Assembly: GCA_964504195.1 (NCBI GenBank)
Contig: CAZDDI010000005.1
Span: forward strand, 1,175 to 65,174
Direction: 5' to 3'
Origin: an uncultured Anaerolineales bacterium
Lineage (GTDB): Bacteria > Chloroflexota > Anaerolineae > B4-G1 > SLSP01
Length of the DNA: 64,000 nt
This document shows, one piece after another, positions 423 through 41,955 of the stretch. Position 1 is the stretch's first letter. Each line of letters begins with the position of its first letter. The position numbers were made by a program, and so were the translations under genes. Below the pieces are notes generated by a model, which was given only the letters and a program-made list of their open reading frames with translations, ran no database searches and had not been told where the DNA came from.

Positions 423-1607
423 TTACTTATCCGCTAGCCTTACCGTGAATACGCGCCCATCGGAGATGAGCTCGATACATCCATGCTGATCGGTGCGGTA
501 GACGGGCGTAGTGCCCAAGCGCGCCAGCACGTCGGGCGCGGGGTCGCCATAGCGGTTCTCTGCCTCCACGCTGATAATAACGGTTTCCGGCGCGACAGCC
601 GCAAGGAAGTCTGGCGTACAGCAAGTTGCCGCGCCTTGACGCGGCAATAGCAGCGCGGTGCTGCGTAGCGCGTCGCCGTAACGTGCCACCAGTTCGCCTT
701 CTACCACCGTTGTGGCCGCGCCAGGGAGCAGCACACTCGTCTCGCCGTAGACCAGGCGCAGCACCAGTGGCCCAGCGACGCCCTCCGGCGGCCAGAGCAC
801 TTCAAGCGTCACGTCTTCATCCAGCTCCCAGCGGCCCCCAGCGAACAGCGTACCGGTGGTGTGCACCGGACGCGCGTCCAGCAGCTCGGCCCAGCGGGTG
901 GGCAAAGCGCCTTCGCGCTGCTCCCAAACCCCCGTGAGGACATAATCCACCCGGTAGCGCTCCAGCATAGGTACCAGCCCGGCCAAGCGCGCATTGCCAG
1001 GGCCGGTAAGCGCCACCAGTTCCACCCGGCGATCCCAGAACGGCAGCCGTCGCCCCACCCGACTGAGCAGGCGCGTAGGTTCAAGGCCGCCATCAATGAG
1101 CGCGTGTGCGCCGCGCGGTGTTTGCACGAGAATGGCATCGCCCTGGCCCACATCGAGGAAGTGGACATGCAGGCGGCCATCGGGCAGTTTGAGCGCGGTC
1201 GCGCCGAGCAAGATGAGCGCGGCGGCCCCGGCCATCCAGTACCGGCGCGCGCCCAGCAGGAACGCGCCGCGCCATGCCAGGCGTTGCGCGGACGAGGCGG
1301 TGAGCCACAGCGTCGCGCCACCCAGCAGCGCGTAATAGCTCCACACCAGTGGCAGGGTCATAAACTCCAGCGGCGCGGAGGCCCAGGGGACTTGGGCAGT
1401 GAGATAGACCATCTCGATAGTGTAGGTGAGAAATACCCAGGCCGACCACGCCACCAATTGCCCCAGGGCGGGCCAGACCAATGCCACTAACAACGCCACG
1501 CCCCCACAGATCATCACCGCTGGCTGAACAGAAGTTAGATTGTGAGAACAGTCGGATTCCTCCGATAGTTTTCGATACCTTGATTGAAGCATCCATGATA
1601 ATAACAT
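423..1607 (-). CDS. ComEC/Rec2-family membrane protein, short form carrying the metallo-beta-lactamase-like domain
   Basis: 394-aa ORF. Hydrophobic N-terminal segments are followed by HFLDVGQGDAILVQTPRGAHALIDGG, the hallmark motif of the ComEC/Rec2 MBL domain. GC-rich like the host genome. Confidence 0.6.
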   Translation of the reverse strand: MLLSWMLQSRYRKLSEESDCSHNLTSVQPAVMICGGVALLVALVWPALGQLVAWSAWVFLTYTIEMVYLTAQVPWASAPLEFMTLPLVWSYYALLGGATLWLTASSAQRLAWRGAFLLGARRYWMAGAAALILLGATALKLPDGRLHVHFLDVGQGDAILVQTPRGAHALIDGGLEPTRLLSRVGRRLPFWDRRVELVALTGPGNARLAGLVPMLERYRVDYVLTGVWEQREGALPTRWAELLDARPVHTTGTLFAGGRWELDEDVTLEVLWPPEGVAGPLVLRLVYGETSVLLPGAATTVVEGELVARYGDALRSTALLLPRQGAATCCTPDFLAAVAPETVIISVEAENRYGDPAPDVLARLGTTPVYRTDQHGCIELISDGRVFTVRLADK

Positions 1608-2069
1608 TGCAAAATAACAGCTAACCCAAGTTGCTACTTATTCGCTAGAATCTTTATAGGACATGGATTCTACGGATAAGAACAAAAAAATCCGCCTAGT
1701 CCGCAGAATCCGTGTCCTGAACCCTGAATCAACCGTGGCAACTTGGATTACATGTGGGATGCACAGAAATTCATTCATAGGTATTGCCACTAAATCCGCT
1801 AAACCTAAAGAGGCGTAAATTGCAGTAAATGTTATTCTCGATTTGCATCGACGACATCCTATGTGATACAATGATTTTAGAATAGTGAATATTCTCCGCT
1901 AATGCTTTGTCAAGCGTAATTTGAGAGGTAATACTGATTATTTTACGGCTAAATTAAAATTTTGCAGTTTCTTGTTTTGCACTTGACAGAACACTTAGAG
2001 ACAAAAGTAACCTTCTAATTCAGTAGGAAACCTTCAAGCCTACAACACTCCAAATAGAACTGGGGAAAA

Positions 2070-2115
2070 GGGGAGGATTTAGAACGCTGTGGCGTTCTAA
2101 ATCCTCCCCTTTTTT
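2070..2115 (+). terminator. Rho-independent terminator (18-bp perfect stem, TGTG loop, T6)
   Basis: GGGGAGGATTTAGAACGC-tgtg-GCGTTCTAAATCCTCCCC followed by TTTTTT. A TTGACA hexamer at 1983-1988 upstream could drive a short transcript ending here. Confidence 0.6.
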
Positions 2116-2128
2116 GTTAGCTGTTTTT

Positions 2129-2352
2129 AATAACAGTAGTTACGCGGTCGAAGCAGGTGGGGCGCACTTTTGACACTAAAACAGCATATTTGCTGCATCA
2201 ATAACGCAATTTGGGTTGGTTTTAAGTGCGGCCCACCTAAGGAATGGGTACGAAATAACTTATCCATTTGAACTCCAAATTGCGCCTGAAACGTCCAGAA
2301 AGCGGGACACTTATTTCGTACTCATTCCTAAACCGCGCAACTACTGTAATAA
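2129..2352. repeat. Nested-palindrome structured element (MITE-like or structured-RNA-like), ~225 bp
   Basis: Outer inverted repeat ACAGTAGTTACGCGGT (2133-2148) / ACCGCGCAACTACTGT (2332-2347). Inner hairpins AGGTGGGGCGCAC (2153-2167) / GTGCGGCCCACCT (2227-2239) and GGAATGGGTACGAAATAA (2241-2258) / TTATTTCGTACTCATTCC (2311-2328). Confidence 0.45.
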
Positions 2353-2552
2353 CTGAAACCAAAGTTTCCCTTTTGAGGTTTTTTCTGACTTTCTGAGAAC
2401 AATTGAAGGAGGTTAGTTAGTTATTTTTCAATGTATCACTTTATTGGATTTGACACAAGTATAACAAAAAAAATCAAAACACTCGATATTTCCCAACCAA
2501 AGACACAACATTTGACATAGAAACCTTAACTACAAATAGAAGAGGAGCGATA

Positions 2553-2759
2553 ATGCAAAACAGTGACTCGTCTTTACAAGATGCTTTATTTCACAATTCA
2601 CTTGTAGAAGTGTTGACTGAAATGGCTAAAAATTACATGCAACAATTAAGATTAGCCAGGAAAGGAAACAGTGTAATTAATAACGACGAAATGACAGGAG
2701 TTAAGGAAAGCAAAGGAATATTTATAACCCAGGTCGAAAACAACGCTGTAAGCTGCTAG
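2553..2759 (+). CDS. Small hypothetical protein (68 aa) in the AT-rich island
   Basis: ORF with a GAGGAG Shine-Dalgarno 6 nt upstream and a TTGACA at 2513-2518. A palindrome CGGGGATC-tagc-GATCCCCG at 2815-2838 lies downstream. No recognisable domain. Confidence 0.3.
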   Translation: MQNSDSSLQDALFHNSLVEVLTEMAKNYMQQLRLARKGNSVINNDEMTGVKESKGIFITQVENNAVSC

Positions 2760-3090
2760 AGGTAAACTCAGTAGATTACAGTTTGCTCGAATTGGATTGC
2801 AATATCCAGCCCAGAACGGGGATCTAGCGATCCCCGTTGAATATTTCGTGATCCACTGAAACTGGCTTGTGCCATAAAATCTTCATCAATTTTACTCACA
2901 CTGGTATCAATGCCTGTGCTACAAGGCTACGCCGGGCAAATCCGGCTTTACAACCGCGTAGACGAAGTGTTGTACTGTAGTCTCGTGATCGCTCACTAGG
3001 CGGGGTATTCATGTCGAATACTTTATGACAATAACCAAGTTTTCAGACAGGGAAGAAGTTTGTCTCAAAATTTCAAAGCATATATAGCAA

Positions 3091-3122
3091 GCACAATGTT
3101 GTTGATAACATTGTGCTTTTTT
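3091..3122 (+). terminator. Rho-independent terminator
   Basis: GCACAATGTT-gttgat-AACATTGTGC followed by TTTTTT, in AT-rich intergenic DNA. Confidence 0.5.
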
Positions 3123-3606
3123 ATAGTTACCCTCTTGTTATCAAAACAAATACATCTGCAATATACTCGAAAATTGAAATAAGAATTAATCATTGATAAC
3201 ATACAGTTGTTTTGTGTAAACAATCATACTAAAACCTCGCAGATTTTAATGTGAAATTGATACGTTACCTTGTCGTTTTGTAACAACAATTTCATCCTCA
3301 AGACTTCCACAGAACTTAGTAGAAATTTCTAGGCTTTCTGGAATTCGTATCAAGCTAACAGACTTAAGATAGAGAGAATTCACTCAAATCGAACAGTGTG
3401 AATAACTCTATTACCAGGAGATGATTTAATGGGAAATGTCTGGGGGTGGCTAAGAGCATCTAGCGTTTTTACGCAGCGTTGCTTTGTGTTGTTGCAAAAA
3501 ACCGTTTTTGGGGCACCCACTATCATTATAGCTGGTGACTTACTAAAATCCTCTATCTGTTCAATCACTGTTAAAAATCAGCATTTGGATGATAAGGCGG
3601 ATTACC

Positions 3607-29373: not shown

Positions 29374-29482
29374 GGCAGGATGCGGTGCAAGATATTTTGA
29401 AATGAACTGGTATGCACCAGCTGCGGATATTGGGTGTAGGGGCTAGAAAATTTGACTTTTAGTTGAACTACTATATTATTGT

Positions 29483-29520
29483 GGACATGGCTCAAAACCC
29501 TGGAGAAGTCAGTTTGACAC
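29483..29520 (+). mobile_element. Solo terminal inverted repeat related to the IS at 36929-38532
   Basis: GGACATGGCTCAAAACCCTGGAGAAGTCAGTTTGACAC is ~34/36 identical to the reverse complement of that IS's right IR. The tip faces outward, to the left. Confidence 0.6.
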
Positions 29521-29541
29521 TTTCTGAAATAAGGAAATCTT

Positions 29542-31032
29542 ATGAACACAGCAAATTATATTTTACAATATGGTCAAGACGAAACTATAGCAATTATCAC
29601 AGAAAAATCCCAATATACCTACAAAGATCTGCGGAGTGCTGTGAACAAAATCGCTACCAAAATTCTAAGTATTGGAATTCTGCCTGGCGATGCAGTTGGA
29701 CTGCTTAGCGCAAACTCTTTGTTTTGGGTGGCTTCATATTTAGCCATTATGAAAATAGGGGGTATTGCAGTACCCTTTTCAACAACTTTGACAACAAAAC
29801 AATTTCAGCAAGCAGAGAGTTTTATTAAATGTAAGGCGATTTGTTTGCAGGAACTTTATCGTAGTAGATATGTGAGTGCATTAAAAAACAAACTGCCAAT
29901 AGTTAGCGAAAACATCCTGTTACCAACTGATTCAATGACGGTCGAAGAATCGCCGGAGACGGTGATAACTGATCCAGAGCAAGATGCAGCTTTCATGCTA
30001 ACTTCTGGAACAACTTCAGAGCCTAAGGTCGTGAGAGTTTCACATGAGAATATTCAATCGAATACCGAATCAATAATCAGCTATTTGGAAATCACTAATT
30101 CAGATCGCATAATGGTCATTCTTCCCTTCTTCTATTGCTTTGGTACATCTTTGTTGCATACACACTTGAGAGCGGGGGGCTCGCTTGTTATAAGCAATCG
30201 TTTTGCTTTCCCAGAAACCGTATTGAACTTGATGGAAACATATAATTGTACAGGCTTTGCTGGGGTGCCATCTACATATCAGATACTTCTCAGAAATACT
30301 ACTTTTCCCAAGCGTAAGCTGCCAATGTTAAAAAAAATCCAACAAGCTGGGGGAAAACTACCTTCTGTTCTCATAAAAGAGTTAAGGGCTATTTTGCCGG
30401 ATTCTAACATCTATATTATGTATGGACAAACAGAAGCTACAGCTCGACTATCGTATTTACACCCCGAAATGCTTGAAAGAAAATTAGGTTCAATAGGCAA
30501 GGGAATTCCAGGTGTTGAGTTGCGTGTAGTAGGAAGTCAAGGTATTGATGTTAGCCACGGTGAAGTTGGTGAAATCGTTGCAAAAGGAAAGAACATCACA
30601 AAAGGGTACTTGAATGATCTGCAAGCAACTGCGGTGAAGTTTAGAGACGGTAATCTGTATACAGGAGATTTAGCTACAGTAGATGAAGATGGCTTTATCT
30701 ATATCGTTGATCGTTCGAGTGATTTTATTAAATCATATGGACATCGAGTTAGTAGTCAACAGATTGAAGGTTGCATTTCAGAACTTCAAGATGTTATAAG
30801 CACAGCAGTTATTGGTGTTCAAGACGTTGTTCGAGGAGAAGCTATAGTAGCTTATGTAACTTTACATAAGAAATCTATTCTTTCTTCTGAGAATATAATC
30901 GCACACTGCAGACAAACACTACCAAGTTATATGATTCCGCGTGATGTGATCGTAGTAAGTGATCTGCCTATGAACGAACAGGGAAAGATATTGAAATCGG
31001 CACTCAAACAACAAGTCTTGGGTGAATTGTAG
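29542..31032 (+). CDS. AMP-dependent synthetase/ligase (acyl-CoA or acyl-ACP synthetase family)
   Basis: MLTSGTTSEPK (AMP-binding core), YGQTEA, and YTGDLA...DEDGFIYIVDRSSDFIKSYG motifs. AT-rich codon usage. Confidence 0.8.
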   Translation: MNTANYILQYGQDETIAIITEKSQYTYKDLRSAVNKIATKILSIGILPGDAVGLLSANSLFWVASYLAIMKIGGIAVPFSTTLTTKQFQQAESFIKCKAICLQELYRSRYVSALKNKLPIVSENILLPTDSMTVEESPETVITDPEQDAAFMLTSGTTSEPKVVRVSHENIQSNTESIISYLEITNSDRIMVILPFFYCFGTSLLHTHLRAGGSLVISNRFAFPETVLNLMETYNCTGFAGVPSTYQILLRNTTFPKRKLPMLKKIQQAGGKLPSVLIKELRAILPDSNIYIMYGQTEATARLSYLHPEMLERKLGSIGKGIPGVELRVVGSQGIDVSHGEVGEIVAKGKNITKGYLNDLQATAVKFRDGNLYTGDLATVDEDGFIYIVDRSSDFIKSYGHRVSSQQIEGCISELQDVISTAVIGVQDVVRGEAIVAYVTLHKKSILSSENIIAHCRQTLPSYMIPRDVIVVSDLPMNEQGKILKSALKQQVLGEL

Positions 31033-31049
31033 AGGGAGTTTAATATTCT

Positions 31050-33035
31050 ATGTGTGGTATTGCGGGTGCGATAGACCTAACTGGTGATAATCAGAATCCA
31101 TTTCCTGACGTTCGAACAATGGTTTCTATGTTAAAACATCGTGGCCCGGAAACTACGGGAGTCTACCATAGTAAATTTGTACACTTTGCTCATGCTCGGT
31201 TAAGCATTATTGACCTAGAAGGCGGTTTACAACCTATACCAAATGAAGATCGTACGCTTTGGGTAATCTGTAATGGGGAGTTTTATAATTTTATAGAGCT
31301 ACGAGAATTTCTGACAGCCAAAGGCCATCAATTCCTCACCGCTTCCGATACAGAAGTTCTTTTACACTTATATGAAGAAATAGGGGATGAGGCTGTAAAC
31401 AAACTTAACGGACAGTTTGGATTCGCTCTTTGGGATAGTGTTCGCCGCCGGCTATTACTTGGCCGAGATCGCTTTGGTATTCGCCCCCTCTTTTATGCAG
31501 TGAAGGACAATTATTTGCTGTTCGCGTCCGAAGTGAAGGCATTACTGGCTGCCAAAATCCAAACTCGCGTCGATTTTCATTCCTTAGCTCAAGTGTTTAC
31601 AACTTGGTCCCCCTTACCTGGAAAAACTATGTTAAAAGATGTATCTGAGGTTTTGCCTGGTCATATAGTCACGGTTAAGGTGGGAGAGGGAGTTGAATCG
31701 CGACCATATTGGCAATTGCAATTTCCAGCTAAAGAAGAAAGGCTTGACGGAGAAAAACTTGCTATCGAGGTAGAATCTATAAGAGAGGCGCTAACTAATG
31801 CTGTAAAGATTCGATTGAGAGCAGATGTACCAGTTGGTGCCTACCTAAGCGGAGGCCTGGATTCAACTTTTATCACGAGTCTTGCTCAAAAGATGAGTAA
31901 TCATCCTTTACATACTTTTTCTATTACATTTGATGATCCAGAATTTGACGAGAGTGAGTATCAATATCAAGTTGCTCACGAAATAGGTACAATTCACCAT
32001 ATTGTAAAATGCGATGTGCAAACAATTCGCAGAAATCTGCCGGACGTTGTATGGCACACTGAAACACCAGTACTTCGATTAGCTCCCGTTCCTATGTACC
32101 TTTTAGCACAATTAGTAAACCAACACAAGATAAAAGTGGTATTGACAGGTGAAGGTGCTGATGAATTTTTTGGAGGTTACGATATTTTTCGAGAAGCAAT
32201 GGTCCGACGTTTTATAGCCAGGGACCCTACTTCCAATATCAGACCTTTATTACTGAAGAGGTTATATGCTCACCTGCCTAATTTAAGCAAGCTCAGCCCT
32301 TCTTTGCTAAAAAAGTTTTATTGTAGAGATTCTGATAACTTATCCTCACCATACTATAGCCATACGCTTAGATGGGATAATACTTACCGTGCTTCTCGCC
32401 TGTTCTCCAAAGAACTTCTTCAGTATTTGCAGGATTATAATGTAATTGATGATATATCCACTTTGGTACCCAAACAAATAGAACAATGGTCTTCTCTTTC
32501 CCAAGCGCAGTACTTGGAAAGCGTTTTCTTCTTATCAAGCTACCTACTATCTTCTCAGGGAGATCGTATGGCTATGGCTCATGCAGTCGAAGGGCGATAT
32601 CCTTTCTTAGATCACCGACTTATAGAGTTGATTAATCAAATGCCTTCAAGATTTAAAATCAATGGGCTGCGGGGCGAAAAGTACATTCTCAAGTTAGCCT
32701 CCAGGGGATTGGTGCCTGATGTTATTAGATCTCGTTCAAAGTATCCTTATCGAGCTCCTGTTCAAAGTGTGTTTTCTAATCTTGCATTGCCCGATTATGC
32801 AAAGGAACTGTTATCAACAGTGAAATTGAAGACAAGTGGCTGCTTTGATCCGGTATTTGTACAAGAACTTGTAAAGAAGATACAAGAAGCACGATTCGTC
32901 GGGGAAATGGATCAAATGGCTTTTGTGGGCATTTTAACATATCAGATATTCCATGATCTTTTTATTGAAAAATTCAATGTTTCTGCACAATACAAACAAT
33001 CTGATTTTATAGATGTTACCAAAGTGTGGAATTAA
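31050..33035 (+). CDS. asnB: Asparagine synthetase B-family glutamine-dependent amidotransferase
   Basis: N-terminal MCGIAG with nucleophilic Cys2. PP-loop SGGLDS. 661 aa. Confidence 0.85.
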   Translation: MCGIAGAIDLTGDNQNPFPDVRTMVSMLKHRGPETTGVYHSKFVHFAHARLSIIDLEGGLQPIPNEDRTLWVICNGEFYNFIELREFLTAKGHQFLTASDTEVLLHLYEEIGDEAVNKLNGQFGFALWDSVRRRLLLGRDRFGIRPLFYAVKDNYLLFASEVKALLAAKIQTRVDFHSLAQVFTTWSPLPGKTMLKDVSEVLPGHIVTVKVGEGVESRPYWQLQFPAKEERLDGEKLAIEVESIREALTNAVKIRLRADVPVGAYLSGGLDSTFITSLAQKMSNHPLHTFSITFDDPEFDESEYQYQVAHEIGTIHHIVKCDVQTIRRNLPDVVWHTETPVLRLAPVPMYLLAQLVNQHKIKVVLTGEGADEFFGGYDIFREAMVRRFIARDPTSNIRPLLLKRLYAHLPNLSKLSPSLLKKFYCRDSDNLSSPYYSHTLRWDNTYRASRLFSKELLQYLQDYNVIDDISTLVPKQIEQWSSLSQAQYLESVFFLSSYLLSSQGDRMAMAHAVEGRYPFLDHRLIELINQMPSRFKINGLRGEKYILKLASRGLVPDVIRSRSKYPYRAPVQSVFSNLALPDYAKELLSTVKLKTSGCFDPVFVQELVKKIQEARFVGEMDQMAFVGILTYQIFHDLFIEKFNVSAQYKQSDFIDVTKVWN

Positions 33036-33055
33036 GCTGTTTTTAGGAGAGAAAT

Positions 33056-34030
33056 ATGAATTTCAACAAAGACATACTAGTTATTGACCCTGTTCACGAA
33101 GTAGAAAGGCTATCTGCGCTTATTCATGAATCACTTTTCAATAGATTCAAACGCAAAGGGGCTGTAATAGGAGTTAGTGGTGGAGTAGATTCCGCTACAA
33201 CACTGGCATTAGTTGTAAGAGCTATCGGGGCAGAAAACGTAATTGCGATAGCGATGCCAGATCAAGATTCCAATCCTGTGAGCGAAATTTTGGGAAAAGA
33301 TATCGCTACTAAATTCGGTGCATCTTTTGTCAAAGAAGACATAACACCGGTCCTTATCTCGCTCAAATGTTATGAACACCGCGATTCTGCTGTACGCAAA
33401 GTCTTCCCAGATTACAATCCAGATACAGATGGAATAAAATTAGTTTTGCCTACTGATTTATTGGGTAAAGGCAGTTTGAACGTATATTCTTTGGCGCTAG
33501 TTCGTAATGGAGAAGAGATTGGCCGACGTATTCTTCCCGCCCCCGTGTATCTAGAAATTGTAGCAGCATCAAATATGAAGCAGAGAACTCGTATGTTGAC
33601 ACTTTATTATCATGCTGAAAAACGGAATTACGCTGTTATAGGAACTGCTAACAAGAATGAACATGCGCAAGGTTTCTTCGTTAAGTATGGCGACGGAGGT
33701 GTTGATATACAACCTATTTTACACTTATACAAAACGCAGATTTATCAACTGGCGCAATACTTAAATGTGCCACAGGAAATAATAGATCGAACACCTACAA
33801 GTGATACTTACAGCGCTGAATGTACGCAAGAAGAATTCTATTTCAGACTCCCCTTTGAACTTATGGATTTGATCTGGTATGGATTTGAGCATGAGGTTTC
33901 TCCTGAAATAGTTGCTAATGAACTAAACCTTGCTACCAAACAGGTAGAAAACGTATATAGGGATCTAGCTCAAAAAGCAAGAAGCACTGAATACTTGCGT
34001 ATGGTTCCAATTACTAGCAATTCCAACTAA
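33056..34030 (+). CDS. NAD synthetase (NadE)-family PP-loop ATP pyrophosphatase / amidating enzyme
   Basis: GVSGGVDS PP-loop. YGDGGVDIQPI...LYKTQIYQLAQYLNVP matches the NadE-family C-terminal signature. Confidence 0.7.
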   Translation: MNFNKDILVIDPVHEVERLSALIHESLFNRFKRKGAVIGVSGGVDSATTLALVVRAIGAENVIAIAMPDQDSNPVSEILGKDIATKFGASFVKEDITPVLISLKCYEHRDSAVRKVFPDYNPDTDGIKLVLPTDLLGKGSLNVYSLALVRNGEEIGRRILPAPVYLEIVAASNMKQRTRMLTLYYHAEKRNYAVIGTANKNEHAQGFFVKYGDGGVDIQPILHLYKTQIYQLAQYLNVPQEIIDRTPTSDTYSAECTQEEFYFRLPFELMDLIWYGFEHEVSPEIVANELNLATKQVENVYRDLAQKARSTEYLRMVPITSNSN

Positions 34031-34078
34031 TCGAATTCTTAAATGTTTCTAAATCAATGACCCAGGGAGTGTAAGAAC

Positions 34079-34321
34079 GTGGAGATTAAAAACCGTATAC
34101 GTGAATTCATTATTACAAATTTTGTCACGGCTTCGGGAGTCTTTATAGATGACACTACTGCTTTGTTAGAGTCAGGTATTATTGACTCTACAGGTGTCAT
34201 GGAGATGCTACTCTTTGTCGAGGAAGAGTTTGATATCGAAGTTCCCCCCGAAGATCTTCTGCCTGAGAATTTTAACTCAATTGCAGGCTTGGCTGACTAT
34301 ATACAAAGAAAACTCACTTGA
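34079..34321 (+). CDS. Acyl carrier protein-like (phosphopantetheine-binding)
   Basis: 80 aa. LESGIIDSTGVMEML has the DSxxxxE-type Ser attachment motif. Apparent GTG start. Confidence 0.6.
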   Translation: MEIKNRIREFIITNFVTASGVFIDDTTALLESGIIDSTGVMEMLLFVEEEFDIEVPPEDLLPENFNSIAGLADYIQRKLT

Positions 34322-34355
34322 TCTTTCTCAGATTTAGATATTAAGGAGGGGAAAA

Positions 34356-35138
34356 ATGAGTTCCGCACAACTCAATTTTAGAGTTAACAAACCGGAGAAC
34401 ACAATCCGGATAGTATTTGTACATCATTCAACTGGGAGAAACCTAATACAACAGGGCGAAGTTCGGGAGTTAATGCAGACTCAAGCGTCGAGGACTGCGA
34501 TGCATTATGAATTTTGGGACCAAGACTATAACAAGATTGGTTTAAGTGATGCGTCTGGCAGCAAACTTGGGATAACTTTAAATATGCCAGGAGATAATAC
34601 TGACCCAGATGGGTTAGAAGCATTGTTTAGTCAACCAATTCATACTCCTCCAGACAATGCCTTAAGTGCTCTTCTCACTTTTGATGTGGTGATTTTCAAG
34701 TCTTGCTATCCAGTTTCAGCGATTCATAATGAGGAACAGTTGGAGCGTTACAAGCAGCACTATTTACGAATACGAGAGACCATGTTAGCAAATCCACAAA
34801 CCTTTTTTGTGGTTATGACTCCTCCTCCATTAATACCAAAACCATTTCCTGTATTTCCCGGGTCTTCTACTACACCAGAAGAAGCAAGGCGCGCAAGAGA
34901 GTTCGCAAATTGGTTAACGTCTGGAGAATTCATAGCAGAACTATCTAATGTTGCTGTTTTCGACTTTTTTGATTATTTAGCTGCGCCTGATGATTCTTCA
35001 AAACAAGCAAATATGCTCCGTGCAGAATATCGAAGCCTCTTAGGGTTTGATTCACACCCAAATTCGACCGCAAACAAAGCAGTCGCTCCGCTATTTGTGG
35101 ATTTTATCGTTAAAGGGATTCAACAATTCTTCAACTGA
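34356..35138 (+). CDS. SGNH/GDSL-hydrolase-like protein, cytoplasmic paralog (tentative fold call)
   Basis: AAGGAGGGG Shine-Dalgarno. Blocks VFVHHSTG, MPGDNTD (GxND-like) and DSHP (Asp/His-like) resemble the SGNH blocks I, III and V. Confidence 0.55.
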   Translation: MSSAQLNFRVNKPENTIRIVFVHHSTGRNLIQQGEVRELMQTQASRTAMHYEFWDQDYNKIGLSDASGSKLGITLNMPGDNTDPDGLEALFSQPIHTPPDNALSALLTFDVVIFKSCYPVSAIHNEEQLERYKQHYLRIRETMLANPQTFFVVMTPPPLIPKPFPVFPGSSTTPEEARRAREFANWLTSGEFIAELSNVAVFDFFDYLAAPDDSSKQANMLRAEYRSLLGFDSHPNSTANKAVAPLFVDFIVKGIQQFFN

Positions 35139-36058
35139 ATCTTCTTATAGCTAGCATTTTGTGACAACTCGTTTAGTTTTTAAGGATGTATTAGATGGTG
35201 AATAGTTCCATAAGTCAGGTTAAAAAAGCAAGATTACTATTTTTCACAATACTTTTGATAATTCTTTTCCTCTTAGGGCGAAGTTGGTTGCGTCCACAAG
35301 AGATATGGCCCTTTATTCTTAATGAAGGACAAAACAAACCGGAGAACACAATCCGGATAGTATTTGTACATCATTCAACTGGGAGAAACCTAATACAACA
35401 GGGCGAAGTTCGGGAGTTAATGCAGACTCAAGCGTCGAGGACTGCGATGCATTATGAATTTTGGGACCAAGACTATAACAAGATTGGTTTAAGTGATGCG
35501 TCTGGCAGCAAACTTGGGATAACTTTAAATATGCCAGGAGATAATACTGACCCAGATGGGTTAGAAGCATTGTTTAGTCAACCAATTCATACTCCTCCAG
35601 ACAATGCCTTAAGTGCTCTTCTCACTTTTGATGTGGTGATTTTCAAGTCTTGCTATCCAGTTTCAGCGATTCATAATGAGGAACAGTTGGAGCGTTACAA
35701 GCAGCACTATTTACGAATACGAGAGACCATGTTAGCAAATCCACAAACCTTTTTTGTGGTTATGACTCCTCCTCCATTAATACCAAAACCATTTCCTGTA
35801 TTTCCCGGGTCTTCTACTACACCAGAAGAAGCAAGGCGCGCAAGAGAGTTCGCAAATTGGTTAACGTCTGGAGAATTCATAGCAGAACTATCTAATGTTG
35901 CTGTTTTCGACTTTTTTGATTATTTAGCTGCGCCTGATGATTCTTCAAAACAAGCAAATATGCTCCGTGCAGAATATCGAAGCCTCTTAGGGTTTGATTC
36001 ACACCCAAATTCGACCGCAAACAAAGCAGTCGCTCCGCTATTTGTGGATTTTATCGTT
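34389..36058 (+). repeat. Tandem gene duplication: ~720-bp near-identical segments (34389-35110 and 35337-36058)
   Basis: Offset of ~948 bp. Identical antisense spurious ORFs at 34384..34623 and 35319..35570. Confidence 0.85.
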
Positions 36059-36091
36059 TCTAGTGTTGAAAAATGGTGTGCAGGTAGATAG
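35195..36091 (+). CDS. SGNH/GDSL-hydrolase-like protein, membrane-anchored paralog
   Basis: Same core as 34356..35138 but with an N-terminal transmembrane anchor KKARLLFFTILLIILFLLG and a different C-terminal tail. Confidence 0.55.
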   Translation: MVNSSISQVKKARLLFFTILLIILFLLGRSWLRPQEIWPFILNEGQNKPENTIRIVFVHHSTGRNLIQQGEVRELMQTQASRTAMHYEFWDQDYNKIGLSDASGSKLGITLNMPGDNTDPDGLEALFSQPIHTPPDNALSALLTFDVVIFKSCYPVSAIHNEEQLERYKQHYLRIRETMLANPQTFFVVMTPPPLIPKPFPVFPGSSTTPEEARRAREFANWLTSGEFIAELSNVAVFDFFDYLAAPDDSSKQANMLRAEYRSLLGFDSHPNSTANKAVAPLFVDFIVSSVEKWCAGR

Positions 36092-36093
36092 CA

Positions 36094-36840
36094 ATGATAG
36101 AGGAAGAAAAAACACCTTTCTGGCAAAAAGCAGGCAAATTCCTACTTCGATGGAGTCTAAGTAAGCATTTTGCCCATATCTATTTGCGTCCCCAGAACTA
36201 CAATATCCCCTATAACAAACCTGTTATGCTGTGTATTAACCACAGTTGCAGATGGGACGTTCCTTTATCGTTATTCTTATCTGAATCTATCCTACAGTTA
36301 GATAGCTATCTTATGGCGGCTCCTCAGGTTATACAAAAATACCCACTTATGTGTAGATTTGGGTGTTTTGAAGCAGATAGCTCTAATCCTATAGAAACTA
36401 CCCGGACTCTTAAATATGCGTCAACTCTTATAAGTGGTAAAAGTGATCGTTGCTTAATCATGTTTCCACAGGGAAGGTATAAGAGAAGCTATCAACGCCC
36501 TTTGGATTTCCGCCCTGGATTTGCTCAAATAGCACGTATAACACGCCCAGTAATCATCCTACCAGTAGCTTTTTATTATGAATACTTCATAGAAAGAATC
36601 CCCGAAGCATTTGTCAGCATAGGTCCTCCGGTGTTTGTTGAATCTCAAATTACGACCAACAAATTAGTCGAAGATGTTGAAGTAGCAGTAACCCGAGAAT
36701 TGGATGCTTTGCAGAAAGATATTACAAATAATCAACTTGATGAATTTATCGCTATACTTGAAGAGCAAAAGAATATGCTTATAAAACTGTGGCATAGATT
36801 TGACTCAGAATGGATAGAGAGAGCTAAACGTACACTTTAA
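36094..36840 (+). CDS. PlsC-family (lysophospholipid / 1-acylglycerol-3-phosphate-type) acyltransferase
   Basis: HxxxxD motif CINHSCRWDVP. ATGA overlap with the upstream gene. Confidence 0.7.
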   Translation: MIEEEKTPFWQKAGKFLLRWSLSKHFAHIYLRPQNYNIPYNKPVMLCINHSCRWDVPLSLFLSESILQLDSYLMAAPQVIQKYPLMCRFGCFEADSSNPIETTRTLKYASTLISGKSDRCLIMFPQGRYKRSYQRPLDFRPGFAQIARITRPVIILPVAFYYEYFIERIPEAFVSIGPPVFVESQITTNKLVEDVEVAVTRELDALQKDITNNQLDEFIAILEEQKNMLIKLWHRFDSEWIERAKRTL

Positions 36841-36928
36841 ACTCTCTGCTAAAGTTATAGAAAACACCATTTTCTTATATTAGGAAATAATAAGGTGTGA
36901 GATCTTGTAAAAACTCAGGGCGTTTTTT

Positions 36929-38532
36929 GGCATGGCTCAGAATCAGTTTGACACTTGGCAAACCGGCAGAAGCCCCGATAATACCGCTAACTTGAAGGGG
37001 GAGGGCTGGGCCATGGCAGCACGAAAATCTTTGTCGGTGACAGAGCGGCGGACGATTGCGGTAAAGATGTTGGACCCGGAACGCCCGCGCGGCACCCCCG
37101 GGCAATTGGCTGAGCAGTATAACCTGAGCCGACAGATGACGTACTATCTGGCGGATCGCGCGGAAAGGGCATTGGACGCGGCCCTGACGCCCCGCTCGGG
37201 GCCAGAGCCGCAGGATACGGTCATCACTGTCACCCCCGCGCGGTTGCGCCGGGCGGTGACCTTGGCGGCGTTGGTGGGCGTGTCGCAACGAGACACCCAG
37301 CTGCTCCTGGCGGAAGTGTTGGACACGCAACGCTCGACAGGGTATGTGGCCCAGGTCCTGGCGCAGGCAGAGCACTTGGCTGCCGCGCGCAACGGCGAAC
37401 TCCAGCTGCCCTTGGCAGGATTGCTGGCCGCGGATGAGCTCTTCTTGCACGCGCAACCGATTCTGGGCGTGGTGCAGCCGGCCAGTTTGTTTATTGCGGA
37501 TCTGCGGCTGACGGCCCACCGCGACGGGACGACGTGGGGCTGCACATTTCTCGACTTACCCGAGGTCGCAGGGGTGATTAGTGATGCTGGAGCGGGCTTG
37601 GCGGCCGGGGGTACCCTGGCCGCAGTTCCCTGTCAGGTGGGGGATTGGTTTCACCCGTTGCTGCAAGCGGCGTATATTGAAGCACAATACGAGCGGCAGG
37701 CTTATGCGGCCTTGGCCAAAGTCTATGCGCGGGAGGAGCAGTTGGCTCAGACCACCACTACGAAACGCTGGGAAAACCATTGGCAACAATACCTGCGTGA
37801 GGACGCCGTCGCCGCCCAAGCCATTGAGCGCTATGACCAATGGCGGCTGTTGCGGTGGCAGTTGCGCGCGTTGGCGGGGCAGTTTGACTGGGATACCGGG
37901 GCGGTACGTCAGCCGGAGACGGTGCAAGCGCACCTGCTGCTGCTGGCCGACCGCTTGGCCCCGTGGGCCGTGGGCACGCTGGCTCAGGCGCTGGTCCGCT
38001 TGCTGCGCACCCAAGCCGCAGCCTTGACCGTGGGACTGCCGCAACTGGCCCAAGCCCTGCAGCCGTTGGCGCAAGCTTGGGGAGCAGAGGCCGTCCGTGT
38101 GGTCTGCCGCCTGAGCCAAGCGTTGCACGAAGCTGCCTGTCCGGCCTGGTTGCCAGCGCAACGCCGCCACCTGGAACAGGCCATCACAGAGAGCCTCGCT
38201 TGGGCCAGTGCCTACCTGGGGCCCCATCTGGCGACCCTGCAACGCCTGCTGGCGGCCATCTTGGCCTACTGGCCGCGCACCAGCAGTGCCATCGAGTGCC
38301 TGAATAGCCTGTTGCGCCCGTATTTGAACGGCCGCAAGCAGGTCGATCAAGGGTTTCTGGACCTCTTCCGTTTCTATCATAACACCCATTGCTTTGTGCG
38401 GGGCAAGCGTGCGGGGGCCACGCCCCTGGAATTGGCCGGTGGTCCGGCGATTCCCGACCCGCTCGCCTTCCTCGGCCTCGGAGCAAAATCCTGATTTGTC
38501 AAACTGACTTCCCTAGGGTTTTGAGCCATGCC
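36929..38532 (+). mobile_element. Complete insertion sequence, tentatively IS256-like, with perfect 8-bp target-site duplication
   Basis: IRL GGCATGGCTCAGAATCAGTTTGACAC and IRR (reverse complement) GGCATGGCTCAAAACCCTAGGGAAGTCAGTTTGACA. Flanking direct repeat CGTTTTTT at 36921-36928 and 38533-38540. The body is GC-rich inside the AT-rich island. Confidence 0.7.
37010..38494 (+). CDS. Transposase (C-terminal TSSAIECLNSLLR resembles the IS256/mutator TTNxIExLN signature)
   Basis: Annotated ORF is 36932..38494. The ATG at 37010 has a GGGGGAGGG Shine-Dalgarno. N-terminal HTH-like segment. Confidence 0.65.
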   Translation, partial: AMAARKSLSVTERRTIAVKMLDPERPRGTPGQLAEQYNLSRQMTYYLADRAERALDAALTPRSGPEPQDTVITVTPARLRRAVTLAALVGVSQRDTQLLLAEVLDTQRSTGYVAQVLAQAEHLAAARNGELQLPLAGLLAADELFLHAQPILGVVQPASLFIADLRLTAHRDGTTWGCTFLDLPEVAGVISDAGAGLAAGGTLAAVPCQVGDWFHPLLQAAYIEAQYERQAYAALAKVYAREEQLAQTTTTKRWENHWQQYLREDAVAAQAIERYDQWRLLRWQLRALAGQFDWDTGAVRQPETVQAHLLLLADRLAPWAVGTLAQALVRLLRTQAAALTVGLPQLAQALQPLAQAWGAEAVRVVCRLSQALHEAACPAWLPAQRRHLEQAITESLAWASAYLGPHLATLQRLLAAILAYWPRTSSAIECLNSLLRPYLNGRKQVDQGFLDLFRFYHNTHCFVRGKRAGATPLELAGGPAIPDPLAFLGLGAKS

Positions 38533-40019
38533 CGTTTTTTGACTTCGAATTTTTTCTTGTTCTTGTGTATAGACCCTACCCATCCCGCCGCCAGTAACAT
38601 GCACCGTTGGGTCGCTTAATAATATTGTTTGGCACGCAAAAAGTTATTCGTTAAGAAAAGTGGTAATTCTTTATGTGTAACTTTTTTGAGGGGGTTTTAC
38701 TAGGATATCTTGAAGCAGCATTTAGAGCATGGAAAGACATGTTATTTGAAGAATTCTCTTGAAAGAAGTTTTTCTGTTCACCATTGATTGTTGCGTTATG
38801 GGTAATTATTCTAGGTCCTATGGTTGTTCCCTGATGGTCACTACATATTAGACATTATCGGAAATAAGGATTTGCAACTTGAATCATAAAATGTTCATAG
38901 TAAATTTTTAGCAATATAATACAAGGTTGTATTTGCGGTGTACTCACCCCATTTTAAGCAGGGAACATACTCTTATTCTTGCGCTATCACATAAAAAAAC
39001 AATCTTTACTACAAAACCTTTCACAAGGTGTGCCCCGCGAGATTTATTGCCTCATTGTCACATTATCAAGGATATTTTAAGCGGTATTACCACAGATTTT
39101 TAAGAAATAGCGATGGAGTTCTTCATAGATTGCACAACTTGTTTATTTTATTGCGCAAGATAAGATATTTCGTTTTATTTTTAATTTGCGTGGAATATCA
39201 AAAAATTATTTAAGATAATGTCTATTGATTGGAGCCAGCGCAGTAGGAATGGAGCGGATTACCTTGAAACATGGAAAGCGTTATTACGAAAGCCTCCTAG
39301 TAAATTTATGCAAAAAGAAAGAGATACTAGATGGTTACTCAAAAAAAATAACTCGCTTCTTAAGTTGTGGAGATAATTAACAGCCACTGATATCAAACAG
39401 AGTTATGTGAATAGTTTCTCAAAGCGACAGATTTACATATCTAATTCTATATCAGATTAAGTAATAAATATAGTTTGCGTATTTTAAAAATAATCTTTAA
39501 ATGAAGAAAATCACAGTAATAGGAAGTGGTAATGTCGGCGGTTCTATAGCCCAACGGCTTGCAGATGCGGGGGGAGTTAATATTGTCCTGGTTGACAGAC
39601 TTGGGGATTTAGCGCGAGGAAAAAGCCTTGACCTTTATGAGTCCCTGCCCCTTATTGGTATAGATACTGATATCGTTGGTACTTCAAATTATGAGGAGAC
39701 AGCAGAATCGGATGTTGTAATCATCACAGCAGGCATTCCGCGCAAATCGAAAATGACGAGGAATGATTTACTGGATTCGAATGCGGAAATTGTTGCGGAG
39801 TGTGTATCGGCAGCTATCGAGTATTCTCCCAATAGTATTTTACTCATAGTAACTAACCCAGTATGTGCTATGTCTCATGTGGCTTACATCGCCAGCAAAT
39901 TCCCCAAACAACGTGTTATTGGGTTGTCTGGTTTGTTAGATACATCACGTATGAGAGCTTTTATAGCTACCGAAATTGGTGTTTCTGTGGAGAGCATTCA
40001 GGCACTTGTAATAGGTGAC

Positions 40020-41212
40020 CTAGCCACCGGACACTTTTTTCAAAAGTACGGTAGCCAGTAGATACGGAACGTCTCTTCATTGGTAATGTGGCGATTGACC
40101 ATCTCCAAACCAATGCGGAAAATGCTCAAATCCCGGCGGTCGGCCCGGTCGACCAGATACCGCTGACTGTTTTTGATGACCCGGGAACCATAGGCGATGA
40201 GCCACAGGTAGACCAAGACCACCCCTAAAGTCAGGCGGGAGAGGCGCAAAAAATGGCGGAGTTGGGTGCTTTCTAAATCAAAACCGTGCCCCTTGAGATC
40301 GCCAAACAGCTCCTCAATCCACATCCGTTTGCGGTACAAGCGCAAGGCTGCGCGGAGATCGGGAAAATTGGTCGCCAAGAGCCAGGGGTGAGCTTCTCCG
40401 GGCTGCCAATAAGCGGCCAGGTTGACGTGATAGGCGTGCTTGTGGGTCAGCTGGGCTTGGGGGTGCCACACCTGTTGGCGCCAGCGCGTGATCAGGGTTG
40501 CAAAGGGCTGCCACCCGCCCTGAGGCTGGACTTGGACCTGGGTATCGCGGGCTTGGCGCAAGACATATTTCCAACCCACGCGGTCTAACCATTTTAATAC
40601 CGCTACTGCGCCAAATTCACCGTCTCCCGCCAGATACACTTGTGCGCCGGCGGGCATTAAGCTGTGAACGTAGGCCAGCAAGGCTATTTGTTTCCGGCCA
40701 CTACTGTGCCCGCGCGGGCCTTGCACCCACGTCCAGGCGATAGGAATGGCCCGCCGCCGATAAGCGACTGCCACCATCAGCAGTTGGTGATTAAAGCCAA
40801 TTTTGCTGCCATCGAGCAACAACCGAATCGGCAGGCCCTGGGCGACGATTTCAGCCAAGATGTTTTCCGCGAGTGGGCGATACCAAGCGCGCACGCGAAT
40901 GGCCGGGTTGTCCAGCAGCCGGCGGATTTTGCGGGTCTTGCTGGGATTGGTGGCCGGGCCCGGAATTTCCTTCGCCACCTTGTACAGGTATACCGACCCG
41001 CAAAAGAACAGGCCCATCAAGAACTGGGCGAAGACTTTTAAGCGGCCCTGATGTTCATCCGGCAACCAGGTTGCCAAATCCGCGTGTAGTTGATGTGCTA
41101 ATTGACTGCGTGCATTCATAGAACCTCCTTGCAAGATTATGCTTATTTATAACCATATAATTATTGTTTATCTTTGTCAAGTCATTCCTGACAAAAAGTG
41201 TCCGGTGGCTAG
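40020..41212 (-). mobile_element. IS4-family insertion sequence (1193 bp) with 20-bp terminal IRs and 9-bp target-site duplication
   Basis: IRs are CTAGCCACCGGACACTTTTT at 40020 and the reverse complement ending at 41212. Direct repeat ATAGGTGAC at 40011-40019 and 41213-41221. Confidence 0.8.
40040..41134 (-). CDS. IS4-family DDE transposase
   Basis: YRKRMWIEELFGDLK matches the IS4 Y-x2-R-x3-E-x6-K signature. 364 aa. GC-rich. Confidence 0.8.
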   Translation of the reverse strand: MQGGSMNARSQLAHQLHADLATWLPDEHQGRLKVFAQFLMGLFFCGSVYLYKVAKEIPGPATNPSKTRKIRRLLDNPAIRVRAWYRPLAENILAEIVAQGLPIRLLLDGSKIGFNHQLLMVAVAYRRRAIPIAWTWVQGPRGHSSGRKQIALLAYVHSLMPAGAQVYLAGDGEFGAVAVLKWLDRVGWKYVLRQARDTQVQVQPQGGWQPFATLITRWRQQVWHPQAQLTHKHAYHVNLAAYWQPGEAHPWLLATNFPDLRAALRLYRKRMWIEELFGDLKGHGFDLESTQLRHFLRLSRLTLGVVLVYLWLIAYGSRVIKNSQRYLVDRADRRDLSIFRIGLEMVNRHITNEETFRIYWLPYF

Positions 41213-41955
41213 ATAGGTGACCATAGTGACAACATGCTACCCCTTACAAATTATTCCAATATTGCAGGTATTCCTCTCTCTGAGATAATGACCGGAGAAC
41301 AGATAGAGCGAGTTATAGTTCATACTAAAAATAGCGGAACCGAAATTGTAAATTTGTTAAAGACGGGAAGTGCTTATTACGCCCCTTCGGCTGCTGTGCT
41401 TGAGATCGTGGACTCCATTTTGAAAGACAAGAAAAAAATACTTCCTTGTGCGGTTTATCTAGAAGGCGAATTTGGAATCAATGATACCTTTATTGGGGTA
41501 CCGGCAAAAATCGGTAGGGGTGGTGTGGAACAAGTCTTCGAAATCATCCTTAGTATGGACGAAATAACATTGTTACAAAAGTCAGCGAATTCCATAAAGC
41601 AAATTGTTAATACACTAGGTCGGGTGGGGTGATGAAAGTGGTGGATCCAAACTGGGTCTTTAACTGCCTTCGGCGACGCGGGACGCGCCGCCGAAACTTG
41701 GATGAAACCGGCCAGCTCCTCGGCATGCAAGCGACTTTTGGCTGGCGACTTACCCGTCGCTTCATTCGACAGCTTTGCCCGCCACTTGCGCGCGCTGTGT
41801 GTGACTCAAAAACTAACTCAAGAGACCTGCTCTAGTGTACTGGACTTTCTATTCGAAAAAATCACTTTGCTATCACTCTCTATCCCATGCTACAATAAAA
41901 CCATAACACTGTAACCAACGCTCACCGCAGGAACCTCCATGCCTGCACATCCAAA

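Follow-up and report, generated by a model that had tools for sequence, protein, structure and literature searches.

An AT-rich island in an Anaerolineae-type chromosome, probably bracketed only incidentally by the ends of a host insertion sequence

The stretch analysed here (64,000 nucleotides of contig CAZDDI010000005.1, assembly GCA_964504195.1, from an uncultured Anaerolineales bacterium; hereafter the window) contains an AT-rich seven-gene cassette that lies between two outward-facing ends of a single insertion sequence (IS) lineage: a solo terminal inverted repeat (IR) at 29484–29519 on its left and a complete IS of 1604 bp at 36929–38532 on its right. A preliminary description of this DNA took these ends to bracket a transposon-like and potentially mobilisable unit. 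We consider it probable that the locus is instead one horizontally acquired island in a variable cell-surface region, in which IS elements landed later and independently of one another, and that the IR bracket is incidental. The argument starts from what can be read directly in the DNA, namely the IR match, the asymmetry of the IS ends, the duplicated target sites, the break in composition and the continuation of the island past the IS; from these we infer the order of events and a preference for AT-rich targets as their cause.

Results

The AT-rich DNA extends beyond the complete IS

The seven-gene cassette has a GC content of 39.5%, compared with 64.2% for the 1604 bp IS and 61.5–68.4% for the flanking host DNA. 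The same break is seen in the GC content of third codon positions (GC3), with values of 0.31–0.37 for the seven cargo genes, 0.71–0.85 for nine host genes, 0.75 for the transposase gene of the 1604 bp IS and 0.68 for that of a second, IS4-family element. The preliminary description had taken the cargo to be AT-rich and foreign and the IS body to be GC-rich, and had proposed a comparison of windowed GC and codon values between cargo and flanks; this comparison confirms the break, and the deviation of the cargo from the host in both base composition and codon usage supports its horizontal acquisition.

The AT-rich DNA does not end at the 1604 bp IS, however. It extends for a further 3 kb to the right, to approximately position 41635, and includes an AT-rich, non-coding spacer of 960 bp at 33% GC (38541–39500), which contains no open reading frame (ORF) of more than 61 amino acids and has no Rfam match, followed by an AT-rich mdh gene in two parts on the forward strand. 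The 5′ part (Ldh_1_N, 39501–40019) and the 3′ part (Ldh_1_C, 41222–41632) have GC3 values of 0.36–0.37 and are separated by an IS4-family element of 1193 bp on the reverse strand (40020–41212; transposase gene at 40040–41119, reverse strand). Cassette, spacer and mdh share a common composition (GC 0.33–0.43, GC3 0.31–0.37). Assignment to the IS4 family follows from the model score (NF033591, 176 bits against a cut-off of 152), from perfect terminal IRs of 20 bp (CTAGCCACCGGACACTTTTT) and from a 9 bp target duplication, ATAGGTGAC, present at 40011–40019 (the last 9 nt of the 5′ part of mdh) and at 41213–41221. Removal of the element together with one copy of the duplication restores an intact MDH of 311 amino acids, and the insertion is carried by all assemblies.

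The island runs from ~29.4 to ~41.64 kb and amounts to ~9.4 kb of foreign DNA at ~39% GC, with the 1604 bp IS inside it. This is at odds with the proposal that the IR tips bracket the cargo as a transposon-like unit, as the IS is not at an edge of the island. The left edge lies somewhere within 29374–29483 (forward strand), an intergenic stretch of 40% GC that follows the gene for a 1397-amino-acid host surface protein; the right edge, at ~41633–41640, bears no IS remnant of any kind. There is no tRNA gene at either border (none is present in the window), there are no flanking direct repeats, no recombinase or integrase domain is encoded by the island ORFs and no Rfam elements were found in the island. 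The right compositional break coincides with the point at which a GC-rich ORF of 67 amino acids (41632–41835), without a family match, overlaps the mdh stop codons; this ORF was called as a gene in one assembly (L007/L029) and not in others.

The complete IS has a target duplication of its own

The 1604 bp IS (36929–38532, forward strand) is located 80 bp downstream of gene 7 of the cassette and consists of a left end of 25 nt (36929–36953), a gene for a transposase of 493 amino acids (37013–38494, forward strand) and a right end of 36 nt (38497–38532). A perfect 8 bp duplication, CGTTTTTT, flanks it at 36921–36928 and 38533–38540; in this the preliminary description was correct, as it was in the coordinates of the element and in calling it a simple insertion. 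Because the IS has its own duplication, it must have landed inside a pre-existing island, and the intact pair means that the cassette on its left and the spacer and mdh on its right were contiguous when it did so. Survival of the pair also indicates that no later composite move has involved the right end; new target DNA would otherwise adjoin it. On the outside of the proposed unit the two 8-mers are different (TTATTGTG at 29476–29483, CGTTTTTT at 38533–38540), and the unit is therefore without a duplication of its own.

The IS was compared with seven further members of its family, from metagenomes and one metagenome-assembled genome (MAG) (loci L010, L013–L016, L025 and L026), whose transposases have 65–84% amino acid identity to that in the window. 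All eight elements are 1600–1608 bp long, and all have a left end of 25 nt (GGCATGG-N8-CAGTTTGACA) and a right end of 35–36 nt (GGCATGG-N18/19-CAGTTTGACA), so that the short left end of the window element is the family norm and not the result of a deletion. The tips read GGCATGG in each of the 16 natural ends, and each of the eight elements has one left and one right end, in no case two right ends. The termini are built of two boxes, GGCATGG[C/T]TCA at the tip and TCAGTTTGACA further in; in the right end these are set apart by ~11 extra nt, approximately one helical turn, and the spacer is conserved in length and variable in sequence. A promoter-like site is conserved after the left end throughout the family (TTGGCA-N16-GA(T/C)AAT) and reads TTGGCA-N16-GATAAT at 36955–36982 in the window IS. 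The mean GC content of the 8 nt flanks is 29% for the eight elements, whose loci have 39–73% GC, and the 8 bp duplication is visible in four of the eight (the window, L013, L016 and L026).

The 493-amino-acid transposase has no Pfam or NCBIfam match, even at E ≤ 10, and relatives with at least 59% identity to it likewise match no model in either collection. Sixty-one relatives were found, nearly all on metagenome contigs of 1.6–2.5 kb, the most distant of which (28–33% identity) pass PF01610 (ISL3), NF033550 (ISL3) or NF033543 (IS256). Among 20 aligned relatives, PF01610 was matched by three, NF033550 by five and the IS256 model by six, the link to the window protein being transitive only. A profile of the family gave a weak match to the Mutator-family transposase structure 6xg8 (E = 0.08). 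Residues D141, D211 and E428, followed by R435, are invariant in the family, which fits a DDE triad; the resident transposase is not truncated and has retained every family-invariant residue, these three among them. Its remote relatives, the DDE fit and the 8 bp duplication place the IS in the ISL3/IS256 neighbourhood, as a member of a putative uncatalogued group. The element is essentially absent from plasmids (DNA and protein searches of 72,556 plasmids, with no plasmid DNA match). The GTDB species representatives, a set from which the host genome is absent, contain one true relative of the transposase only (65% identity, in a Deltaproteobacteria MAG), and a second metagenome scan with the transposase returned three loci.

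The solo repeat is a right end in the probable leader of gene 1

The solo sequence at 29484–29519 (reverse strand), GACATGGCTCAAAACCCTGGAGAAGTCAGTTTGACA, is identical at 33 of 36 positions to the reverse complement of the IS right end at 38497–38532 in an ungapped comparison, the mismatches being at positions 2, 20 and 22. A match between the two had been claimed previously, and it holds. A repeat search paired 29483–29519 with 38497–38533 (37 nt, 92% complementary) as the longest inverted repeat in the whole 64 kb window, and a degenerate pattern of 34 nt matched only the solo and the IS right end; it had no match in 100 dinucleotide shuffles, on which grounds a chance match was rejected. By blastn of the 1604 bp IS against the remaining window the solo site was found at E = 2e-8, and no IS remnant besides it. 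The tip points leftward, and thus outward as had been described, and the solo is also present in the independent assembly L007.

The two boxes of the solo are 19 nt apart, matching the right-end (IRR) type. Three other identities were considered and rejected: a left-end remnant, an idea that arose from a shared CACTT, on the inter-box spacing; a left end with an internal deletion, because short left and long right ends are kept in all eight relatives; and a miniature inverted-repeat transposable element, as the island is without any partner end. The solo is unambiguously a right end; as it is inverted when read on the forward strand, it is the scar of an oppositely oriented copy, the body of which lay at the present start of gene 1. 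In its variable spacer there are two differences from the resident IS and four from the next relative; it is this smallest number of differences that assigns it to the lineage of the resident IS. Homology ends at the inner edge of the right end, the site expected for the transposase stop codon, which implies that the junction is a deletion endpoint and not a joint made by transposase.

The 8-mer outside the solo tip (29476–29483), TTATTGTG, fits the AT-rich target pattern of the IS family. Approximately 40 bp outside the tip have 35–38% GC, and AT-rich or intermediate DNA extends for 110 bp, so that the solo tip is close to the compositional edge without coinciding with it. Of the promoter-like sites in the region, the best (TTGACT-N16-TATTAT, 29452–29479) abuts the tip, and the solo sits between this site and the ribosome-binding site of gene 1, which puts the scar within the 5′ leader of that gene. 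Overall there is no enrichment of such sites (24 found, 22.4 expected), and the one at 29452–29479 is a positional hint only.

Given two outward ends of 92% identity and a full-length resident transposase with all family-invariant residues, it could be proposed that the solo and the IS right end form a currently functional right-end/right-end composite, or a one-ended substrate, that moves the seven-gene cassette. We regard this as very improbable. Position 2 of the solo tip carries a G-to-A change where G is found in 16 of 16 natural ends, natural elements never join two right ends, the outer flanks share no duplication and the unit occupies a single locus in all assemblies. The flanking termini consist of one complete IS and a 36 nt mutated right-end scar, no duplication surrounds the whole unit, exact look-ups and 90% clusters of the cargo and transposase give no other site, and plasmid DNA has no match to the IS. 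The same observations (a pair of right ends, the mutated tip, the lack of a unit duplication and the single locus) tell against the suggestion that the cassette is potentially mobilisable. The solo had been offered two origins in the preliminary description, a remnant of a second copy and a one-ended transposition substrate: the former stands, as an oppositely oriented copy represented by its right end, and the latter is very unlikely, given the tip substitution and the differing outer flanks. That the cassette is a nascent right-end/right-end composite transposon, whose mutated solo end and resident right end still cooperate, appears to us very unlikely; if true, the conserved 25 nt/36 nt asymmetry of the ends would be dispensable for transposition. 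The preliminary description had missed the AT-rich DNA past the IS, the IS4 element in mdh, the unequal IS ends and the right-end type of the solo, the AT-rich or intermediate DNA outside the solo and the substitution in the solo tip.

The junctions agree among assemblies and the locus is variable

Assemblies of different samples (JGI, ENA/MEGAHIT and Logan) agree at 100% identity over both junctions, both IS elements and the solo IR, and a variant lacking either IS is seen in none of them. When the cargo and transposase proteins were looked up by exact sequence and in 90% clusters, only this locus was returned, from several samples, and among 15 billion proteins there is no second context for the island.

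As the source is a MAG or metagenome contig, and as the assemblies disagree within the cassette over the presence of one or two SGNH genes, we considered whether the AT-rich block is an assembly chimera, or whether the likeness of the IRs is due to chance. Either is extremely unlikely. The left and right junctions are the same in the three kinds of assembly, a GC-rich IS with perfect duplications inside AT-rich DNA records events in vivo, the shuffled sequences gave no match to the IR, and the disagreement between assemblies is restricted to an exact repeat of 726 bp. This direct repeat is 100% identical between 34386–35111 (gene 5) and 35333–36058 (gene 6), and so complete an identity implies that gene conversion or duplication took place very recently. 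The unique 221 bp joint between the copies (35112–35332) is present in two JGI assemblies; the MEGAHIT and Logan contigs L007, L008 and L009 have one hybrid SGNH gene of 262 amino acids instead of two, which is either an assembly collapse or a real recombinational deletion.

A related MAG contig (L021; GCA_964396925.1, CAYNIR010000064.1; 78–89% nucleotide identity) is without positions 24499–45114 of the window, and has ~480 bp in place of this 20.6 kb segment, which holds the gene for the 1397-amino-acid serine-rich protein, the island and four downstream genes. The locus is therefore hypervariable, and the borders of the island are not defined by this contig. Another contig of this MAG (L022) has the 303-amino-acid/455-amino-acid version of the genes; two strains may be mixed in the bin, or a duplication of the locus may account for this. 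The island is set between giant beta-helix and serine-rich surface proteins on one side and a tad-like pilus cluster on the other.

Gene content of the island

All seven cargo genes are on the forward strand. Gene 1 (29542–31032) encodes an adenylate-forming enzyme of 496 amino acids (Pfam AMP-binding, 2.7e-68) whose closest relatives in the PDB are oxalate- and malonyl-CoA ligases, and gene 2 (31050–33035) an AsnB-type glutamine amidotransferase of 661 amino acids (TIGR01536, 500 bits). Gene 1 scores 315 against TIGR03098 (cut-off 592) and gene 2 scores 422 against TIGR03108 (cut-off 817); being below the model cut-offs, they are not members of these families. Gene 3 (33056–34030) encodes a NadE-like PP-loop ATP pyrophosphatase of 324 amino acids (NF002048, 423 bits) and gene 4 (34079–34321) a stand-alone acyl/peptidyl carrier protein of 80 amino acids. 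Gene 6 (35195–36091) encodes an SGNH-fold esterase/acyltransferase of 298 amino acids with an N-terminal membrane helix, and gene 5 (34356–35138) a paralogue of 260 amino acids that lacks the membrane anchor, each holding one copy of the 726 bp repeat. Gene 7 (36094–36840) encodes a PlsC-type acyltransferase of 248 amino acids (PF01553, 2e-10).

A PDB sequence search with the SGNH protein was empty, and a fold search gave the SGNH fold only. The AlphaFold model of gene 6 (pLDDT 89.6) was matched by Foldseek to PAF-AH, to acetyl-xylan and sialate esterases and to the acyltransferase SsfX3, and residues S61, D268 and H270 are invariant in 36 homologues. Very tentatively, the cassette could follow a Dlt-like logic, in which a small acid, possibly a dicarboxylate such as malonate or oxalate, would be adenylated and loaded onto the carrier protein, the loaded acid would be amidated by the AsnB and NadE-like enzymes, and the PlsC-type and membrane-anchored SGNH enzymes would transfer the amidated acid to a lipid or surface polymer.

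A four-gene module of asnB, carrier protein, adenylate-forming and nadE-like genes is present on many rhizobial plasmids and chromids, examples being Shinella plasmid NZ_CP086611.1 at 351.6–356.3 kb (L023) and Rhizobium plasmid CP021374.1 (L024); in Shinella the module adjoins genes for exopolysaccharide export, a glycosyltransferase and phospholipid headgroups. A literature search on this module returned nothing usable and no member with a tested function. In the search for a donor, the best non-self identity among 5.8 billion protein clusters was 59% for gene 6 (mostly Chloroflexota) and 58% for the reconstituted MDH, and the donor lineage of the island is unrepresented in this collection.

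Elsewhere in the window, a second AT-rich patch at ~1600–3600 (40–45% GC) has no ORF of more than 85 amino acids and contains a perfect hairpin of 22 nt at 2066–2113. It shows no similarity to the main island and may be a degraded island or a large regulatory or intergenic region.

Discussion

In the reading that we favour, the island, comprising the seven-gene acyl-carrier/amidotransferase/acyltransferase cassette, the spacer and mdh, would have arrived first in an Anaerolineae-type chromosome of ~65–68% GC. Resident GC-rich IS elements would then have landed in it independently, with at least three landings within 12 kb: the IS4-family element in mdh, the 1604 bp ISL3/IS256-related element downstream of gene 7 and, at an earlier time, an oppositely oriented copy of the latter's lineage in the 5′ leader of gene 1. 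A deletion not made by transposase would later have removed the body of the leader copy and left its 36 nt right end. The leader copy would have parted the cassette from its promoter, and loss of its body would restore expression; we infer that selection to restore expression of the operon lay behind the deletion. As the IS family inserts into AT-rich 8-mers, and as the island is dispensable and tolerates insertions, it would be a natural sink in a genome of ~66% GC, and most likely it has collected host IS elements in this way. The two inverted ends, as the incidental result of two separate landings, would not be the delivery vehicle of the cargo and are probably no working transposon.

It is also conceivable, although we hold it to be rather doubtful, that an IS which helped to deliver the island survives only as the solo right end, so that the IR would mark the left integration junction, either as the arm on the left side of a composite transposon now decayed or with a resident IS copy as the joining point. 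Acquisition of foreign DNA flanked by IS elements is common, and the DNA outside the solo tip is indistinguishable from host intergenic DNA, which at 41800–41900 is also 35–38% GC. On the other hand, no IS remnant is present at the right edge of the island or elsewhere in the window, the IS family resembles the host in being GC-rich, which the cargo is not, the junction on the cargo side is at the inner edge of the IR and not at a tip cut by transposase, and no second context for the island came to light among the 15 billion proteins.

Several points weigh against the sequence of independent landings that we prefer. The solo is within ~110 bp of the left compositional edge, as a boundary role, and hence delivery, predicts, and the sink model explains this position only by the scarcity of tolerated non-coding target space. 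The preference for AT-rich targets is drawn from eight elements only. A precise empty site was not found, the 20.6 kb gap of the related MAG contig being larger than the island, and a metagenome scan with the right-flank protein returned nothing from a collection that apparently lacks the source contig itself. Exact-sequence look-ups, by which further copies of both IS elements were sought, return this one locus only.

Should the landings have been independent, an apparent composite transposon may arise by accident where host IS elements that target AT-rich sites gather in an island of low GC, and inverted pairs of IS ends within such an island of a high-GC genome can mimic a transposon bracket. 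What is new at this locus belongs to known kinds only (an unclassified IS group resembling ISL3/IS256, and an uncharacterised cassette from an unsampled donor) and current understanding is not overturned. The locus resembles a composite transposon in that outward-facing termini of a single IS lineage lie to the left and right of a gene cassette; it differs in that only one IS is complete and the other terminus is a mutated 36 nt scar of the same, right, end type, and further in the lack of a unit duplication, in the duplication private to the IS and in the foreign DNA that extends past it. Its likeness to a genomic island lies in the sharp break in GC and GC3, the cell-envelope type of cargo, the strain-variable locus and the host IS elements, their target duplications still intact, that colonised it later, although there is no integrase, tRNA gene or flanking direct repeat, and no donor was found (≤59% identity).

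The ISL3 family, as described in ISfinder, has an 8 bp target duplication and terminal IRs of ~15–39 bp. The window IS is alike in its 8 bp duplication, terminal IRs of 25–36 nt, single ORF for a DDE transposase and length of 1.6 kb, but its transposase and the relatives of at least 59% identity match no family model, and its family is set apart from ISL3 by the GGCATGG tips and by the conserved insert of ~11 nt that separates the lengths of left and right ends. A literature search for solo IRs of ISL3 elements gave nothing usable. The eight 1.6 kb elements define an IS group that is missed by Pfam and NCBIfam.

For the cargo, the ligase and amidotransferase sets associated with PEP-CTERM/exosortase systems offer a similar enzymology, although genes 1 and 2 are below the respective cut-offs. 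The four-gene rhizobial plasmid module, known in Shinella, Sinorhizobium, Rhizobium and Mesorhizobium and adjoining exopolysaccharide and phospholipid genes, likewise groups an AsnB, a carrier protein, an adenylate-forming enzyme and a NadE-like enzyme, at ~40% amino acid identity. It differs from the window cassette in gene order, and the latter adds two SGNH-fold proteins and a PlsC-type acyltransferase; the island therefore carries an uncharacterised adenylation/carrier protein/double amidotransferase/SGNH/PlsC cassette, the four-gene core of which is common to rhizobial plasmids.

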